64,000 bases of DNA, from the sequence record NC_048170.1; one strand, given 5' to 3'. The translations under genes and the position numbers were made by a program. Origin of the DNA: Escherichia phage vB_EcoM_Goslar. The first letter of the stretch is position 1; the number at the start of each line of letters is the position of its first letter. Below, one piece after another: positions 33,917 to 42,202 of the stretch. The notes beneath the pieces are model-generated. The model saw nothing but the letters and a program-made list of their open reading frames with translations. It was not told where the DNA came from and did not search any database.

Positions 33917-36900
33917 TTATTTGGCGTCGTTAAAATAAATATCAACAGCTCGTTCCGTTGCGTAGAGGAGACCAAGATTCACAGTCCCAACCACTTCCGG
34001 TGAACCGATGATACGGTTAGCGATACTGGTGCCACTGAAGATAGCATCAAGGGTGTGCCCGTCTTCGGTTTTGTTCACACCATGACCCACGGAAGAGACA
34101 ACGGATTTCGCTTGTGCTGCGAAGGTACCTTTATCACCCATCCCCGCACCAAGGTCGTAACGCATGAAAATACGGATGGCGATCTGGTTCTCGCCTAACG
34201 GATTACCGTCTATTCTTACGTTACTGTTGTTGATACGCCCCGTTGTTGCTTCGTTGAGTTTCAGTTCCTTAACGCGTTTAGCTCGTGCTTTATCCGCATC
34301 GCCGACGAGCGCTGCCATGGTTTCACTCATATCCTCAATCTGAGCGCGGTACAATACATCGATCTGTACAACTTCACCATGAACGTCAGCACGTGGGTTA
34401 TACTGACTCATACGCCGTAATGCTTCAACGGCTTCCTGACTCTCATCACTCAGATCGGTCGCAATCGGTTCTTCCAGTGTTGCAAGGATCGTTCGTGGTT
34501 CAACATGATCGCCGATTTTCACGAGACCACGAATGTTGAGATGGGCGTCAACGATGAGTGTACGACTCTTAATCGATGGTGTTACGAGACGATCGGCAAG
34601 ATTGTCGAAGATATACGAACTGTCCTCGTGCGTCTCTGGAATATCCAGAATACCGACAAGAGACAGAACACCTGCGCGCCAAACAACCTGACCTGGGTTC
34701 CACCAATCGCGTTTAAAATAAAGACGATGGAAAACCACCACATCCTGATCCTTAACGCGATCCCCGACTTTATAATCGGTAATGAGATCGTGAGGATAAT
34801 ACTTACCTGGTCCTTTCCCGATTATCGTGCCGAGTTGGAAAACCTCTTCTCCTAACTCTGGATCGTCGTATTGTATCGTAAGCGCAGTTTTGGTGACCTT
34901 CTTAACAACACCATCGCCTTGGGCAGCTGCTGCGAAGAGTTTACCAACACGATGCGCGATGACTGTCTCGCCACCCGTACGCCATGGTTGTACATCGTAA
35001 CCTTCAGCAGCAATCATGCGGTTGTGTTGGATTCCGACAAAAACCAGACGTTTTCCATCGTCACGGTCTACAGCCGGAACAGCTAACGCCGACGTACTCA
35101 TTACCGATGAGATACCATCTGTCTTTTCATCGAATGGTCGTGTTTCACCATACACCGACACGATATTAGCATTAGGTGCAAGGTAAGCAGAGATACCCAC
35201 ATCCCCACTATCTTTCGTACCCTCTGACACAATACCAACATCAGACTTGTCGTATTCACGATCGCGTGCGCGTCGAAGCGATGTCTTTGAACGACCTCCG
35301 ATACCGGTCATCGTTGCTTCTTCACCTTGCTTGATATCCAGCATTGGGTTGGTTTCATCAATGACGATAGAAGCACTGTCGTCAAGGATTTGGTTCCAAA
35401 CGCTCACCGGACTGATTGAGATCTTCTGTCGGTTGCCTTGGCTGCTGTTCTCATTCTGACGAATAGCGCCAACCAGGTCCTTATACACCAATTCAGCGAA
35501 CTTATCGTACGTTTTAAAACGTTGGTAGTTCACATCGTTCGTGTTAGGTGCCCAATCATCCAGAAGCAGTTCAACAGCACGCAGTAGCAACATGGCGAAA
35601 TCAGTAGGTTCTCCCATGTTCTGTAATAGCGTACGGCTTACCGGATCAACGAAAAGACGCTCCATGAGTTCAAGTTCGCGTAAATGGCGAACCTTAAGTC
35701 CAGCACCATCGACAACGTTAAAATAGATATCACGATTGTCAAAAGCGCCGCGAGCGTAACCGATGTAGTTACGGTACTCGTTAAACCCACCCAGCAACAA
35801 CGTCGTCATGCGATCGTCTTTACTGAAAATCAAACTTTCATCGTCAAAGCTCACCGCGAATTCATCTGCTGCTAACCCCATACGAGAACCACGAGGTACC
35901 GTACGATAGTTTGCTTTAAGATGTTCTAATAACGGGGTAAGTCCGCCCAGATAACTTAGAACAACGCCAACCGGAATACGTACACCCATGAATTCAAGAT
36001 CGGCGGCTTCGATCGGCATCTTAGCCGCATTGATACCGAAGAAATCAGGGAACGTCCCTACAGGTGTTGGTGTTTGTCCTGACTGACAGATATAGAGCTG
36101 ATTGCGTTCATCGATCGCTAGGAACTCACCCGATGTGTTACGTGCGAACGTCAGGAGTCCTTCGGCTAACTGTTCGTTGAACCGATCTTCCCCAATGAAC
36201 TCCGGCAATGTTTTTATATCGAGACGTATATCCCAATCAGCAAATTGGATTTGGGTATAGTTGCGTGCAAGCACAGCGAAGTAATACGGGACTTTGACAG
36301 CCGGATCAAAGACGTTACCACGTTTTAACGTTGTTAAGGGTGAGGACTTATCGTAATACATCGCCGTAAGTTGACGTGTTAGCCAACGACCGGCGTTATT
36401 AACGACGCGCTCTGAACGTTTAACAAACACCTTACCGTAGGCGGTACTTAATGCAACTTCGGATGATGATACCTTTCTAATAGGTTTATCAACACGTTGT
36501 TTACGCATCCGGTACTTGATGCCGTTAACAACATAAATGCCATCCTTACGAACCTTCGGCAACATCACCGGGAACGTGGTTGGGACACCGCCTACAGGGG
36601 CCAGTTTAATCGTGATGACTTGATAATCCCCCATCACGTCAACAACATCTTCGACTTTATATCCCGTAACAGGGTAACCTGCTTGCTGTACCGCAACAAC
36701 GGCAGCTGCGATGTCCTTTTGCATTACATGCTCAACGTAATGTTTATCCCACACCGCAAGCGTCGATTTACATAGGCTCTTATCGACGATAACATCCGCT
36801 TCCGGCATAACCTTTGCGGGAGCTAATTTTGCGGCTTTTGGTTTAACTTCAACATACTCGGCAAGCGTGAGTCCAGAACCGTCGGGCGCTTCGATTTCAT

Positions 36901-38263
36901 GAATAGCGTCGGCATTACGCATCGCTGCTTTATATTGGACGCCGCTTAACTGACCCGCATCCGCCAGATCGCTCGCGCGCACCAACACCGCATCCGATAA
37001 CGACTGAATATATTCACCGTGCGTTTTTGGTAACGTTGCCGCGTCAAAGACATCAACCTTTTCTTCTTCGGTATCGTCGGTAACGACTTCGAAGAGATCG
37101 TCGGTAATGTCCTGATCTTCATCGGGTTGGAAATCTGGTTGTACTTCTACCCCGGGTACTTCACGGACATCTTCGAACGCGCGTTCTACAATGGCGTTCC
37201 ACGCATCAGCGTCATCGTCTTCATCCGACCCACCGACCAACTCCGCTTCTAACTCGTCGGGGTCAAGAACAGTGGCCAGATCCTCCCCGTTAGGAAGCAT
37301 GACGTCACGATCATCGTACTCCGCATCCGGGCTGTCCGCAAGAATATCTCGCTCTTGACGAAGAACCTGTTCCTCTTCTTGTTTCTGTTCTTCTTCATTC
37401 GCACTCTGCGACCACAGACGTGTTACCGCCATCATCCAACGACGCTGGAAGGTTTCAAGTGTCGTTTTATCGAGTTCTTCCCCTTCCTTTACAAGTCCGG
37501 TACGCCATTCTTCCAGTAGACCAAGATTCAGCGTAAAGAAGTACACACCGTCTGTAAATACAACGTTAAGCTTATCCAGCGTGGCTCTGTCTAACGAAGC
37601 CATCGTGCTGTTCTCACGATCGACGCCCAGCCAGCGGAAGAAGTCAAAGAACGACAGCTCCTCCGGCGTGGCGAAATTCATGAGGTTGTTACGGGTCGGT
37701 GCCTGTTGCGTGGTACGCATCAACGAAATCTTCGGCAATGTTGACGGTATACGGAACAACAAAAAGTGTTGACGATCGCTTTGCTGTGCGATTTCGTTGG
37801 CTTTCGACCAAATTGTTTTACGCACGTTGAACCATTCATCATACCAACGGGTGAGCGTTGGACGATAGATGTACATGTGGTTAAGATGTGCGTAGTTAGC
37901 AACGATCTGAGCGTTGATGTTTTTCTCCACCGTACTTAGATCGGTAACCAAACGAAAACGACGATGCGATGCACGATAATCCAATTTCGCTCGTGGAAGT
38001 TGGAATCGTTGATCGCGTCGAGGTGCACCCTGTTTGGTTGCGAGATCATCAGCAAACGAAATCCATAGTTGAGCACTTTCTTTACTCAGCATGTATTCGT
38101 TTTCTGGAGGACCTATCAATGAAGGATCCGTTGCGGTGTAATGATAGACAGCATAACGCGGCAGCTGCAATAGCTGCACTAAACGTAATCTCGGTGACAA
38201 TAGCTCTTGGTAGCGTCTGACACCAAACTGTCGGTAGTAATCAAGGTATTTAAGTTTTGCCAT
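33917..38263 (-). CDS. multisubunit RNA polymerase beta-like subunit
   Basis: NPMLDIKQGEEATMTGIGGRSKTSLRRARD...SEGTKDSGDVGISAYLAPNANI resembles beta NPLSEITHKRR..GPGGLTRERAG..ETPEGPNIGLI; GDKGTF...GHGVNKTEDGHTLDAIFSGTSI resembles GDKMAGRHGNKGV block; RBS GGAG. Confidence 0.55.
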   Translation of the reverse strand: MAKLKYLDYYRQFGVRRYQELLSPRLRLVQLLQLPRYAVYHYTATDPSLIGPPENEYMLSKESAQLWISFADDLATKQGAPRRDQRFQLPRAKLDYRASHRRFRLVTDLSTVEKNINAQIVANYAHLNHMYIYRPTLTRWYDEWFNVRKTIWSKANEIAQQSDRQHFLLFRIPSTLPKISLMRTTQQAPTRNNLMNFATPEELSFFDFFRWLGVDRENSTMASLDRATLDKLNVVFTDGVYFFTLNLGLLEEWRTGLVKEGEELDKTTLETFQRRWMMAVTRLWSQSANEEEQKQEEEQVLRQERDILADSPDAEYDDRDVMLPNGEDLATVLDPDELEAELVGGSDEDDDADAWNAIVERAFEDVREVPGVEVQPDFQPDEDQDITDDLFEVVTDDTEEEKVDVFDAATLPKTHGEYIQSLSDAVLVRASDLADAGQLSGVQYKAAMRNADAIHEIEAPDGSGLTLAEYVEVKPKAAKLAPAKVMPEADVIVDKSLCKSTLAVWDKHYVEHVMQKDIAAAVVAVQQAGYPVTGYKVEDVVDVMGDYQVITIKLAPVGGVPTTFPVMLPKVRKDGIYVVNGIKYRMRKQRVDKPIRKVSSSEVALSTAYGKVFVKRSERVVNNAGRWLTRQLTAMYYDKSSPLTTLKRGNVFDPAVKVPYYFAVLARNYTQIQFADWDIRLDIKTLPEFIGEDRFNEQLAEGLLTFARNTSGEFLAIDERNQLYICQSGQTPTPVGTFPDFFGINAAKMPIEAADLEFMGVRIPVGVVLSYLGGLTPLLEHLKANYRTVPRGSRMGLAADEFAVSFDDESLIFSKDDRMTTLLLGGFNEYRNYIGYARGAFDNRDIYFNVVDGAGLKVRHLRELELMERLFVDPVSRTLLQNMGEPTDFAMLLLRAVELLLDDWAPNTNDVNYQRFKTYDKFAELVYKDLVGAIRQNENSSQGNRQKISISPVSVWNQILDDSASIVIDETNPMLDIKQGEEATMTGIGGRSKTSLRRARDREYDKSDVGIVSEGTKDSGDVGISAYLAPNANIVSVYGETRPFDEKTDGISSVMSTSALAVPAVDRDDGKRLVFVGIQHNRMIAAEGYDVQPWRTGGETVIAHRVGKLFAAAAQGDGVVKKVTKTALTIQYDDPELGEEVFQLGTIIGKGPGKYYPHDLITDYKVGDRVKDQDVVVFHRLYFKRDWWNPGQVVWRAGVLSLVGILDIPETHEDSSYIFDNLADRLVTPSIKSRTLIVDAHLNIRGLVKIGDHVEPRTILATLEEPIATDLSDESQEAVEALRRMSQYNPRADVHGEVVQIDVLYRAQIEDMSETMAALVGDADKARAKRVKELKLNEATTGRINNSNVRIDGNPLGENQIAIRIFMRYDLGAGMGDKGTFAAQAKSVVSSVGHGVNKTEDGHTLDAIFSGTSIANRIIGSPEVVGTVNLGLLYATERAVDIYFNDAK

Positions 38264-38266
38264 GGG

Positions 38267-38446
38267 TTAGGCTCCACGAGGTCCCGTTAAGTTGCGTAAT
38301 AGGAACGCAACCGTATCGTAACCAATATCAATGTTGAATTTATTTTTACCACTTACCCAGAAAGCTCGCTTCTTGTGCGAGTTGGTAATTTCGTCAATAG
38401 CTTCCATGGAATAAAGAACGTTAACCGAGACCGTATCACCGTCGAA
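38267..38446 (-). CDS. RNAP beta-prime-like subunit, exon 2
   Basis: frame translates FDGDTVSVNVLYSMEAIDEITN...GYDTVAFLLRNLTGPRGA*, colinear with E. coli beta-prime after DFDGD; below 60-codon ORF-track cutoff. Confidence 0.6.
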   Translation of the reverse strand, partial: FDGDTVSVNVLYSMEAIDEITNSHKKRAFWVSGKNKFNIDIGYDTVAFLLRNLTGPRGA

Positions 38447-38930
38447 CCTTGTCTTCGCCTCAGGTCGCTACGCTGAGACCGCCTGCATGGATACGTACAT
38501 CACAGGCTGCTTGCACTTTCATGCAAGAGGAGACTATATCAAACCGTCAGCTTCACTTTCTCGATCATATCGAGAATGCGGCGCTGAAGTATTCTTCAGC
38601 AGCACCTGTTACGGTAACCTACACTTCGAAGACGCTTGTCCTCTACAGGGTGGTAAATCCCTTAGTCGTTGAACCTGCGTTGTTTCACATTCTTACAACC
38701 AAGAATGCCGTATTGCTACGCAATAACCAGGCTGCTGATTGCCCATTGTCTCGCACCTTAGCACCGCTTACGCGGCTTTTCTTTCAGCCTAAGCCTCTTA
38801 CGGAGGTAGTGCATCTCAACTGTTGTTTCTGCCTTTCGGCACCTCATGGGTCGTTGAGCTTTAGGGGTTCCCAGCAATTCGTAGGTTTTTCAAGCACTCC
38901 CTTTCAGGAATACCGGACCTTATAGAAAAG
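38447..38930 (-). ncRNA. group I intron catalytic core (3' part of intron)
   Basis: minus strand: AATTGCTGGGAA (38879-38868), AATCAGCAGCC (38740-38730), GTTCAACGACTAAG (38674-38661), GATATAGTCTCC (38540-38529) in P-Q-R-S order; no ORF of 60 codons or more on the coding strand. Confidence 0.6.
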
Positions 38931-40403
38931 CTATTTATTCAAGTATCTGAAATCCCACTTATCCTTACGTCTATTATCGCACTTGATGTCAGGATGTCTA
39001 ACACGGTGTTGAATCGTAGTCGCTGGTAATTGACTCACATTCACAGCCGATTTCGCGCCAAGAACAATTGTTTTTGTGTTGTCCGGACGAGTAACTTCTA
39101 CCGCTCGATGATGTTTACGTAACACATCACGCCAATACTCACGCCGTTCCGGTTCCGCGTATTCGAGCATATAACCGTTGGTATCGACCAGACCGTAACT
39201 CTCGTTTAAACGAGAGGTGGCGGCTGGTCTACTAATACCAATCGCTTTAGCCGCGTCAACCACGGTTTTATACGGGGTCTCATTACCGTCTCTATCTACA
39301 ACCACAATAAAATCTGGACGCGAATCGAGCAGCTGCTGTCTTCGTTCAAGGGCTTGTTGATGAAGCACCTTATTAACATGTTCGAACCCGTAACCTTCTG
39401 GACCGTGCCACCCTGGATTGTTATTCGCTCGATAAAGTATCGTCGCAGATTTCACTCCCGTCTGACGTGACGCCTCGTTCGCACTATGGACAACCGTGGT
39501 AGTGCCATCAGGGTGATATATCCGTATCTGGTTCATTATACCAGAACCAACGAAATTACCATCAGCTGATTTAATGTCCGGCCAGGGTTGTGGATCATCT
39601 TTGAATTTAACCACCCAACGGTTGTTAAACAATTTGACTTTCCGAGCATGTTTACCTAATGTCGTGTCTGTAACACCGGCTACAGCAGAGGCTTGCGCGA
39701 TACTAGGATATTCCGTGACCACATCTTCTTCAGTATCCCAAAGGAGAACCGGTTTGTTATCATCACGTAGTCCGGTCTCAACCGCATGTAGAATATTTCT
39801 AAGGCGGGTTGCCCATTCTAGATTGTCTAACGCGTAATTCCACTTATCGCCATCAAGATGGTTAACGTCCATCCTATCGACATCAGCCGGATAATCTTTC
39901 CACGCTAAGAGCAGACAGCGATGAAGCGATCTTCTCTGGGATTTAAATCGGCAATCATGCTGCATACTAACGAAAACATAGCTATCGTCAACACACCAGT
40001 GAGGACACTGACGGCCAGTAATACGGTTGATGATTCTACCTTTCCGGTTGGCCAAATAACGAGTGTGTCCGGGAATGACACGATAACCTGGGTACTTAGC
40101 GATTTCGTAAGCAGGCTCGAACCGATAGGATAAATTATCAACATCCCAGTTAGATTCGTCACCATCAACAAACATCGCTTTGACGTATTTCTGTGTTTCA
40201 ATATCAACCAGGATGTTTTTGTGTGCGATACAAATCAATGCTGGGATATTGAATTCGCGACCGGCTATGATAACCGTGTCGCCATTTCTCGGTACCTCGA
40301 CGTGGGTATCGCGATACCGTAAGTTTCCATAGCCGTCTATTTCAATCCAGCTTAAAAACGGAATGGGTATAAACTCTTTTTCAGATACTCGCCATTTAAA
40401 CAT
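38931..40403 (-). CDS. HNH homing endonuclease (intron-encoded)
   Basis: HNH motif VNHLDGDKWNYALDNLEWATRLRN; C-terminal repeated DNA-binding-like modules (SIAQASAVAGVTDTTLGKHARK, TVVDAAKAIGISRPAATSRL). Confidence 0.8.
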   Translation of the reverse strand: MFKWRVSEKEFIPIPFLSWIEIDGYGNLRYRDTHVEVPRNGDTVIIAGREFNIPALICIAHKNILVDIETQKYVKAMFVDGDESNWDVDNLSYRFEPAYEIAKYPGYRVIPGHTRYLANRKGRIINRITGRQCPHWCVDDSYVFVSMQHDCRFKSQRRSLHRCLLLAWKDYPADVDRMDVNHLDGDKWNYALDNLEWATRLRNILHAVETGLRDDNKPVLLWDTEEDVVTEYPSIAQASAVAGVTDTTLGKHARKVKLFNNRWVVKFKDDPQPWPDIKSADGNFVGSGIMNQIRIYHPDGTTTVVHSANEASRQTGVKSATILYRANNNPGWHGPEGYGFEHVNKVLHQQALERRQQLLDSRPDFIVVVDRDGNETPYKTVVDAAKAIGISRPAATSRLNESYGLVDTNGYMLEYAEPERREYWRDVLRKHHRAVEVTRPDNTKTIVLGAKSAVNVSQLPATTIQHRVRHPDIKCDNRRKDKWDFRYLNK

Positions 40404-40410
40404 TTCAATA

Positions 40411-40440
40411 CCTATTAATTACCACTTTCATATTAATAGG
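40411..40440 (-). promoter_or_regulatory. AT-rich 9-bp hairpin just upstream of HNH start codon
   Basis: minus strand cctattaat-atgaaagtggta-attaatagg ending 8 nt before ATG. Confidence 0.35.
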
Positions 40441-40490
40441 TTTAAAAGTTAAATTTGCCAGAAAACTGGCATTTTGTTAGCCTTTCCTTG

Positions 40491-41957
40491 ATCACCGCCA
40501 AGTCCGGCGAGGTATGGCGCAGGGACAATAGTAGTTTCTACGAACGAGGCATTAGGTAACCAGTCGGGGTATTCCCACGCAATAAATCGCTCATCCGTTA
40601 TTGGTTCCCAGTTACTATCAAGTTCAGTTTTCGGTTTTGCTGCAACGGTCGTACGCGCGTAACAGGTTAACGGAATGACGGATTGCATACCCGATACCGG
40701 ATAACGTGTTACCATTGCAGCCAGGTTATTCCAGTATTTATATCCTGCGATATACACTAATTCGGTATACGTGATAGGGTGAACATCTGCACCAGGTTTG
40801 TTAAGCATCTCCGGAGGTAATTCACTCATACCACGGAATAACCGAAACGAATCATTGTTCACATAGACAAGACAAAGATATCGTCCATTAACCATGATAG
40901 GTTCGTTACGCACACCCGGATCGCTTAAGGTGTTCAGTAAGCGTTCTATTCCGTCCCAGGTTGTAAAGTCATCGATGGTGTCTGGATCAAGCGTGACGCG
41001 TTCACGTTCCATCGTTTCGGTATCAATAAGTTCAACTTCTGTAACATCACGGACAAATATTTCCTGCAAAATCCCCGTACGTAATGCATGTTGCGTTACA
41101 GGGAGAGCAGCTTTACTCATCTGGTATAACCCTAACTGAACCGCGGTACAGGAAGGCTGGTTAGGCGACCCTAGTACCTCCGTTGTGGGGTTAATTGCTG
41201 AAATAACGTTACGGGTTGAGTTCCAAACGCGACGTGAACCAAACTTACCTTGGAAGATCCCTTTCTTACCTTGGAACATATCCAACAACAAAGCGTAGAT
41301 ATCGTTAAATGTTCTCTGTAAGCTCCAGCGCTGGCCGTCGTAAACGGGATCAGAATAATCTTTTAATCCATCGGGGACGGTGTTAGAAATTGCAAGGAAA
41401 CGACGATACAACTCTGTAATCTCTTGCTCGCTTTCATACCCGCCTTCTTTTACTTCTATTTCACGTAAGCCTGCAGGCAATACCAGTAAGTGACGGGTCA
41501 TCGCTTTGAACATGTTCTCTTCGACAACTTTAATTCGTAGCTCTCGTTGAGCTGAGCCCGTTGAAACGAACTTGATATCCGCGACGTGTTGTGCAAAGAA
41601 CCCGTATCCTGTTTGTCCTGTTAACGCATCAGACGCAACGAAGTCGCGTTGTTCAGGATCCCAACGAGCGTACGCCTTCCCCGACATGATATCACCATAG
41701 AGGTGTTTTAGTCGAATGAGGCGGTCGTAAATGACAGGGTGCAGGATTTCAACTTTACATTCAATCACCGCAAATCGACGGTCTCGATCTTCACTACCCG
41801 CACTACCAAAGATGGTGTAAGAATAGAAACCATCATCGTGGAAATTACCGGTGCTTGGGTCACGAATGCTCATGCTCGTGATCTTGGGGAGAAAACGTAA
41901 CTGCTGTTTATCGAGGTGTAAAATGCTAATGTTAAACGGCTCTCTGACTTTAGCCAT
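40491..41957 (-). CDS. RNAP beta-prime-like subunit (N-terminal fragment), exon 1
   Basis: RBS GAGGAG before ATG at 41957; blocks LLVLPAGLREIEV, KKGIFQGKFGSRRVWNSTRNVISAINP, RYPVSGMQSVIP align with [41 protein letters not shown]; ORF-track tail past 40491 is intron read-through. Confidence 0.6.
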
Positions 41958-42202
41958 GGAGACACTCCTCTTTACCACCACCGGCTGCGGCGGTATCATC
42001 TGAACACACGAGAGACGTAATGGGTGATGGCGTCACCCATCGCTTCCTTGCTTGAGGCGAGGAAGTTATTAGGTTACGTACCTGCGTGATAAAATCAAGC
42101 AGGCGATGTGTGAAGTTACGCTTCAACATTATCAATGCCGAAGGTAAACTTCGTGCATCACGTTCCAACGTAACATGGGAACGTATCGAACTGGAGGTAT
42201 AC

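Follow-up and report, generated by a model that had tools for sequence, protein, structure and literature searches.

How does a phage keep a working virion RNA polymerase when an unrelated gene sits in the middle of the codons for its catalytic site? We addressed this question in a 64,000-nucleotide stretch of Escherichia phage vB_EcoM_Goslar (record NC_048170.1; hereafter the window), where an open reading frame (ORF) of 490 amino acids carrying an HNH motif, preceded by an AT-rich hairpin, interrupts the gene for the N-terminal part of the beta-prime subunit. We consider it highly probable that the gene is interrupted by a mobile group I intron of the gp179 type known from phiKZ, whose endonuclease ORF lies in the loop of the first paired element, P1, behind a hidden ribosome-binding site. 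The element as such is already known, since phiKZ and many relatives share it, and the current understanding of these introns is unchanged.

The interrupted DFDGD motif and its group I core

All features of the locus are on the minus strand unless stated otherwise, and those that define the interruption are as follows.

40491..41999, minus strand: exon 1, gene for the beta-prime N-terminal subunit of the virion RNA polymerase (phiKZ gp180 homolog), 3' end ...GGC GGT GAT
38447..40490, minus strand: group I intron, 2044 nucleotides (nt), starting CAAGG after the exon U and ending ...ACAAGG with a terminal G
40449..40451, minus strand: in-frame stop UAA ending the read-through of exon 1 into the intron (intron nt 40-42; position not conserved in relatives)
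38931..40403, minus strand: HNH homing endonuclease ORF, 490 amino acids, ATG start, with an N-terminal domain, a sheet-like segment, the HNH motif and four modules, each a beta-hairpin with a helix-turn-helix-like part
38510..38938, minus strand: ribozyme core P3-P9 (Rfam RF00028 Intron_gpI, 67.7 bits, E 3e-16)
38267..38446, minus strand: exon 2, FDGDTVSVN...RGA plus stop codon, 59 codons, begins TTCGAC

Translation of the flanks gives a predicted spliced product reading ...LGGD|FDGDTV..., with the last base of exon 1 at 40491, exon 2 running from 38446 and the fused exons reading GGCGGTGAT|TTCGAC at the junction. The split falls after the first D of the DFDGD codons (GGD | FDGD), and gene identity and synteny together indicate that the motif cut by the intron is the catalytic DFDGD of the N-terminal beta-prime subunit of the polymerase packaged in the virion. 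The beta-prime assignment made in the initial annotation thus holds, the gene being a phiKZ gp180 homolog with DFDGD. Read from 41999, the spliced product has 562 amino acids and is ~38-42% identical to one protein in 308 jumbo-phage records, including Erwinia, Salmonella, Klebsiella and Pseudomonas phages (PhiPA3 and 201phi2-1 among them). The protein is probably 548 amino acids long, starting at the second ATG (41957, MAKVREP...), since the gene calls of intron-less homologs begin at this ATG, 14 codons downstream of 41999 (M15). The listed 516-amino-acid ORF, which starts at 41999, is a truncated artefact of read-through into the intron, and in the annotation the polymerase subunit is to be joined across 40490..38447.

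An Rfam search of the window returned a single Intron_gpI match, at 38938..38510, which covers the full model (1-253) and exceeds the gathering score of 50; within the core, P5 carries a large extension and a 37-nt insert separates P7 from P3'. The 5' splice site lies after GGTGAT, so that the ATG of the ORF is exactly 87 nt into the intron, in agreement with the approximate spacing first estimated, and the 3' splice site follows ...ACAAGG, with the last intron base at 38447. These boundaries are fixed by five intron-less alleles (L008-L012 in our set of relatives, which are cited below by such handles), as these loci are colinear with exon 1 plus exon 2 and align free of indels across GAY|TTY; comparison of intron-minus with intron-plus alleles therefore confirms the junction proposed at the outset. 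Together, the core above threshold, the U.G wobble at the 5' site, the terminal G at the 3' end and the restored host frame have the signature of a group I intron.

The gene order is that of phiKZ, with a divergent upstream 2260-amino-acid tail-lysin gene, the PHIKZ180 homolog and the 1448-amino-acid beta gene (PHIKZ178 homolog), and the window also encodes a DNA polymerase, a terminase, a tail sheath and virion proteins, as fits a phiKZ-like jumbo phage. The next gene downstream is uninterrupted:

33917..38263, minus strand: virion RNA polymerase beta subunit (phiKZ gp178 / PhiPA3 gp211-209 homolog; phrog_3148, E 0)

Among relatives, the ribozyme cores are 96-99% identical, yet they differ by whole-hairpin insertions and deletions (window 38555-38582 and 38690-38722, minus strand; L002 7483-7964): a 28-nt hairpin in P8 is found in the window only, a 33-nt P6a hairpin is missing from the L001 core, and a 33-nt hairpin in the P5 extension is confined to L002. 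A 158-amino-acid plus-strand ORF at 38449-38925, antisense to the core and similar to a 136-amino-acid gene call in L007, is almost certainly spurious. The leader also holds a hairpin, GCCAG-UUUU-CUGGC (40457-40470), which is terminator-like in the plus-strand reading, is not conserved in L001 or L002 and gives a weak chance match to the FtrA small RNA (28.9 bits vs a threshold of 134). The CAAGG found at both intron ends (40486-40490 and 38447-38451) is not conserved in relatives and is probably a coincidence.

The P1 loop and the buried translation start

To place the ORF within the ribozyme, we located the paired elements that flank it, listed here with the counterparts of P1a and of the leader hairpin in relatives.

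40490..40493, minus strand: P1 5' strand, made up of exon G-A-U and C(+1) of the intron, with the splice-site U opposite G38918
38916..38919, minus strand: internal guide sequence GGUC (3' strand of P1), in which G38918 is the wobble partner of the splice-site U
38893..38914, minus strand: P2 hairpin, GGUAUUCCU-GAAA-GGGAGUGCU, in which L007 and L006 have U-A for C-G, a compensatory change
40478..40487, minus strand: P1a 5' strand, GGAAAGGCUA, intron nt 4-13
38924..38933, minus strand: P1a 3' strand, UAGCUUUUCU, containing the ORF stop codon
40399..40450, minus strand: hairpin burying the translation-initiation region, core arms 40432-40440 and 40411-40419, with the Shine-Dalgarno AGG (40411-40413) and the AUG within the extended stem
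L002, P1a: 5' strand CCCUUUUAG, 3' strand CUAAAGGG
L006, P1a: 5' strand AUUUUCUGA, 3' strand UCAGAAAAU
L025, P1a: 5' strand AUGAAUUAAUUG, 3' strand CAAUUAAUUCAU
EL, P1a: 5' strand GUGAUG, 3' strand CAUCAC
L002, hairpin arms: AUAAACCUCU/AGGGGUUUAU, the 3' arm being the Shine-Dalgarno sequence
phiKZ, hairpin arms: UUAUCCUAU/AUAGGAUAA, the 3' arm being the Shine-Dalgarno sequence
EL, hairpin arms: ACAACUCCU/AGGAGUUGU, the 3' arm being the Shine-Dalgarno sequence

A guide sequence was sought in the 87-nt leader and none was found there; it is located instead 3' of the ORF, where GGUC begins 12 nt past the stop codon. All relatives, phiKZ and EL among them, have the motif (R)GUCC immediately 5' of P2, and P2 itself reads GGUAUUCYC-GAAA-GRGAGUGCU across relatives. 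Furthermore, intron position +1 covaries with its partner, as a C-G pair in the window and L002 and a U-A pair in L001, L006, phiKZ and EL.

The two ends of the ORF-containing segment are brought together by P1a, a pairing of 10 base pairs (bp) in the window (RNAduplex -12.5 kcal/mol, shuffle p 0.002) whose strands are separated by ~1550 nt. In the relatives, the first 4-25 intron nucleotides likewise pair with the sequence immediately 5' of the guide, in a sequence that differs from lineage to lineage, with phiKZ having a version of its own. Cognate strands pair at a mean of -10.7 kcal/mol vs -5.6 for non-cognate combinations, and the shuffle p values are 0.000-0.05 in seven of eight lineages (window, L001, L002, L006, phiKZ, EL and L025), with FishSpeaker at 0.30; single-sequence P1a energies set against sliding ORF windows are not significant. 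The cognate pairing and shuffle tests together indicate that the leader and ORF form the terminal loop of an extended P1, which sharpens the 5'-proximal peripheral loop of the initial annotation. That annotation had the ORF ending 1 nt before a P-like element, a description that does not stand: the stop codon UAG (38933..38931) belongs to the P1a 3' strand itself, and the Rfam core match overlaps the final 8 nt of the ORF. In the splicing pathway that these pairings suggest, exon GAU and intron +1 would pair with the guide GGUC, P1a would close the leader and ORF into the P1 loop, and self-splicing would join GGD to FDGD, thus restoring the polymerase subunit.

Within this loop, the start of the endonuclease ORF is itself folded. 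The hairpin first noticed upstream of the ATG is present, with core arms cctattaat (40411-40419) and attaatagg (40432-40440, both in plus-strand coordinates) forming 9 bp around a 12-nt loop and 7 nt separating it from the ATG. Its extended fold of ~21 bp includes the Shine-Dalgarno AGG (-10..-8) and the AUG (z -2.75 vs shuffles), and the paired probability of positions -14..+3 is 0.86, a value reached by only one of 34 other genes in the window (0.50 +/- 0.12). In most relatives examined (L002, L006, phiKZ and EL) the structure is kept and the sequence changed, with z-scores of -1.8 to -4.1 across lineages, the Shine-Dalgarno sequence always in the 3' arm and, Vibrio phage Yong excepted, paired probabilities of 0.61-0.91; no conserved motif was found in the hairpin loop among the relatives compared.

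The suggestion that the hairpin gates translation is therefore borne out as regards burial of the ribosome-binding site, and most likely the hairpin keeps endonuclease translation low. Intron ORFs that reach into paired or core sequences are tightly controlled in their expression (PMC3984707) and the 3' end of the ORF overlaps P1a, which make limitation of translation the best-supported role that we infer for the hairpin. The buried Shine-Dalgarno sequence and start codon would leave fewer ribosomes to unwind P1a, which holds the stop codon and is among the helices that set the 5' splice site, and would keep the nuclease dose small. A termination-coupled mechanism, in which ribosomes stopping at the in-frame UAA open the hairpin, was considered and rejected, as the corresponding stop lies at nt 1-3, 7-9, 10-12 or 19-21 in relatives.

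The leading alternative, which we regard as possible but doubtful, is that the hairpin serves as a structural or stability element of the P1 loop, providing compaction or nuclease protection, and overlaps the ribosome-binding site only incidentally. Its position inside the L1 loop, where compaction would aid folding, its AU-rich and moderately stable stem (-11.7 kcal/mol for a 62-nt region) and the lack of a clear hairpin in Yong fit such a role. Against it stand the exact coincidence of the 3' arm with the Shine-Dalgarno sequence in phiKZ, EL and the window clade, despite their differing sequences, and a degree of occlusion that is an outlier among 34 genes of the window.

An HNH endonuclease and its proposed, polymorphic target

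The assignment of the ORF to the HNH endonucleases is upheld by several comparisons. In addition to the motif itself (DVNHLDGDKWNYALDNLEWATR), it matches Pfam HNH_3 (E 3e-8, 33.6 bits vs a cut-off of 24.8), PHROG 59 (E 1.9e-26) and, both by sequence and by Foldseek, the nicking enzyme I-HmuI (1u3e_M, PDB 1U3E; E 9.6e-10, TM-score 0.52 normalised to target), the only significant match in the PDB. The HNH residues N181, H182, N194 and N203 are invariant in 12 aligned homologs, and the last three align to H75, N87 and N96 of I-HmuI. Of the domain families named at the outset, HNH_3 is found above its cut-off, whereas NUMOD1 and the I-HmuI NUMOD-like domain remain just below threshold; also below threshold are all NUMOD1 and helix-turn-helix matches when the C-terminal segments are searched separately in Pfam. 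The repeated C-terminal modules that had been noticed in the sequence do appear in an AlphaFold model (predicted local distance difference test score, pLDDT, 80.8), as four beta-hairpin plus two-helix (beta-beta-alpha-alpha) units in the C-terminal half, three of which are mutually similar (internal similarity z 3.6-7.3).

Among relatives, the ORF is the fastest-evolving part of the locus (86-88% nucleotide identity, with 94-95% for the exons and 96-99% for the ribozyme core), and a ratio of nonsynonymous to synonymous substitution rates (dN/dS) of 0.13-0.17 indicates that it is functional and under purifying selection. Two segments stand apart. Residues 113-170 (39894-40067, minus strand), which align to the N-terminal region of I-HmuI (residues 12-70), share 43-57% identity across variants that are 93-99% identical in the rest of the ORF, and the last module (residues 431-486; 38946-39113, minus strand) is 59-64% identical in the pairs involving L002 and 82-84% in those involving L007. 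Synonymous divergence is saturated or strongly elevated in both, a pattern that suggests module replacement by recombination, that is, an endonuclease that is mosaic in two putative DNA-binding modules.

Relatives of the endonuclease occur in metagenome assemblies at 97, 89, 85 and 50% identity, all at the same site in the same gene; an IMG/VR scan with the HNH protein returned no relatives, and a megablast of 38000-41000 against phage genomes gave no match. Uninterrupted 548-amino-acid proteins are found at 99-100% identity to the spliced subunit (P0012, with 235 member sequences, P0013 and P0014, the last from a 238-kb contig deposited under Salmonella Enteritidis), and the intron is present or absent among phages whose flanks are 94-97% identical. 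The IMG/VR locus set is biased towards intron-less genes by the search pattern, and intron frequency was not estimated from it.

Across 2.9 kb of flanks, four intron-plus and five intron-minus alleles show fixed differences at 6 of 306 polymorphic sites. Three of the six cluster at the target, at -4, -1 and +3, where GGT GAT|TTC of the intron-plus alleles stands against GGG GAC|TTT of the intron-minus ones (natural intron-less allele: GGTGGGGAC|TTTGAC), and all three are synonymous. The U at -1 in intron-plus alleles is explained by its requirement for the P1 wobble pair; the differences at -4 and +3 are unexplained by pairing and are compatible with co-conversion or with resistant variants of the target. 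Among 22 intron-less homologs at greater distance, the first D is encoded by GAC in 18 and by GAT in 4, a bias that offers weak support, and the other two D codons of the same homologs together count 24 GAC vs 20 GAT.

In the homing cycle that we propose, an I-HmuI-like enzyme would most likely nick intron-less alleles near GGnGAY|TTYGAY in co-infecting relatives, and repair would copy in the intron together with a few flanking bases. We think it unlikely that the endonuclease no longer promotes homing, whether because it is decaying or because it is retained only as an anti-phage weapon or in another role. Such a loss could be read from the N that replaces a metal-binding D before the catalytic histidine, from the differences at -4, -1 and +3, through which intron-less alleles may escape cutting, and from the action of PhiPA3 gp210 in phage competition (PMC11620839). 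Decay, however, is excluded by the dN/dS values; presence and absence of the intron among 94-97% identical phages, with flanking polymorphisms shuffled between carriers and non-carriers, fit ongoing gain or loss; and a weapon role and homing are not mutually exclusive.

The motif is interrupted well beyond the closest relatives, as ~30 of 120 homologs among the matches listed end exactly at G(A/G)D, and in EL, FishSpeaker, Yong and L025 an ORF and then a group I core follow exon 1. L025 is interrupted at the same site as the window, and the HNH-ORF introns of Vibrio phage Yong (L016), EL (L017) and FishSpeaker (L018) are displaced from it by 2-4 codons within the motif (after NADFD, DSDHD and DNDGD). 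This multiplicity of insertion points marks the catalytic motif as a hot spot. Separately, the neighbouring beta gene of several relatives is interrupted by a second group I intron near residue 1070, a site of the PhiPA3 gp210 type (L009 10856-11222; L025 7885-8306; L013 near 10858; Serratia phage Kodama, L015, 4950-6714). This second intron is ORF-less in L009 and has an HNH ORF in Kodama, where it was recognised from the split gene and the HNH ORF, no Rfam match having reached threshold there.

Related introns and possible competition at the polymerase active site

The closest parallel is the phiKZ gp180/gp179 locus, which shares with the window the host gene, the synteny (tail-lysin gene divergent upstream, beta gene downstream), the insertion site GAT|TTCGAC (D|FDGD) and the layout, namely a short leader with a hairpin burying the Shine-Dalgarno sequence, an HNH ORF, the guide (A)AGUCC, P2 and the core. 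There, PHIKZ180 (491 amino acids) ends GAD plus stop, a ~55-nt leader with the hairpin precedes PHIKZ179, and the group I core (92.2 bits, Rfam) is followed by ...AACG|TTCGACGGGGAC. P1a closes the ORF loop in both phages; the phiKZ ORF, however, runs through the guide into P2, whereas that of the window stops in P1a. The host proteins are ~38% identical, and the endonucleases (357 residues in phiKZ vs 490) share 31% identity over window residues 51-274 (tblastn), their C-terminal halves not being alignable. phiKZ gp179 has been called intron-encoded (PMC12676376, PMC10914365) and, as cited in the latter, was a predicted intron endonuclease from the phiKZ genome paper onwards; more generally, jumbo-phage RNA polymerase genes are frequently disrupted by introns (bioRxiv 10.1101/2020.12.14.422802).

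PhiPA3 gp210 is likewise an HNH protein in a group I intron of a chimallivirus virion RNA polymerase gene, at aspartate codons of the catalytic region, and it nicks the intron-less virion polymerase gene and aids phage-phage competition (Birkholz et al. 2024, PMC11620839). Its intron sits in the neighbouring beta gene (gp211/209), which is uninterrupted in the window, although some relatives of the window (L009, L025 and Kodama) do have a beta-gene intron. The ORF also resembles I-HmuI, encoded in the DNA polymerase intron of SPO1, in its HNH motif and its DNA-binding architecture of beta-sheet plus helix-turn-helix; I-HmuI differs in its host gene, in having D74 in place of N and in its 174 residues with one helix-turn-helix module, compared with the extra N-terminal domain and four modules of the window ORF.

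Several observations weigh against the interpretation of the locus as a mobile, self-splicing intron with translationally restrained endonuclease. Spliced reads were not seen for the phiKZ gp179 intron by ONT-cappable-seq (PMC10914365), the P1 pairing within the exon is limited to 3 bp and P10 to <=2 bp, and N181 replaces the metal-binding D74 of I-HmuI in all 12 aligned homologs, a substitution that is probably tolerated because it is invariant in this subfamily. The hairpin of Vibrio phage Yong is weak or absent (paired probability 0.41). In a nucleus-forming phage, moreover, ribosomes may never meet unspliced RNA, which weakens protection of splicing as a rationale for the hairpin.

A hidden ribosome-binding site has its precedent in the td intron of phage T4, where that of the endonuclease I-TevI is likewise held in a hairpin (in the window, as computed from the sequence). 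I-TevI belongs to the GIY-YIG enzymes and lies in the P6 region. In T4, late-promoter transcripts that lack the 5' arm of the hairpin reportedly relieve the block and permit I-TevI translation, and this precedent, together with a TATG in the hairpin loop of the window, could point to a promoter inside the leader or hairpin, from which late transcripts without the 5' arm would alone be translated. We consider such control very unlikely in the window: no internal promoter is evident, a phiKZ-type TATG late promoter in the loop was rejected because TATG is not conserved there (neither in L002 nor in L006), and phiKZ gp72 and gp179 have been placed in polycistronic units without internal transcription start sites (PMC12676376). 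The reason stated for such burial, in PMC3984707 and its reference 35, is that splicing is disturbed when an ORF overlapping paired elements of the intron is translated. Finally, the notion that there is no intron, but naturally split subunit genes with a free-standing HNH gene between them, follows the way in which gene callers annotate phiKZ, EL and FishSpeaker and is scarcely credible, as it would separate D from FDGD in the catalytic motif and leave unexplained why a complete group I core lies precisely in the stretch that separates the ORF from exon 2 and why intron-less alleles are colinear with the two exons.

A group I intron with its endonuclease in the P1 loop could also be seen, more speculatively, as one side of an ongoing arms race within a single phage population, with target-site resistance set against module swapping. 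We hold this extension to be tentative and less probable than not. GGG GAC|TTT in place of GGT GAT|TTC would confer resistance to nicking on intron-less phages, the C at -1 would bar splicing of an intron inserted there, and the endonuclease would respond by swapping its putative DNA-recognition modules (residues 113-170 and the last module; 43-64% identical vs 93-99% elsewhere). If this were true, the enzyme would chiefly serve as a weapon that attacks a rival phage's virion polymerase at its catalytic-site codons, as shown for PhiPA3 gp210.

Near-identical phages with and without the intron provide a natural set in which homing, target-site resistance and interference competition can be studied directly at the active site of an RNA polymerase, and the locus clearly exemplifies, with support from covariation, a P1-loop ORF whose ribosome-binding site is hidden. 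The points most worth attention are the linked synonymous differences at the target site and the mosaic modules of the endonuclease.

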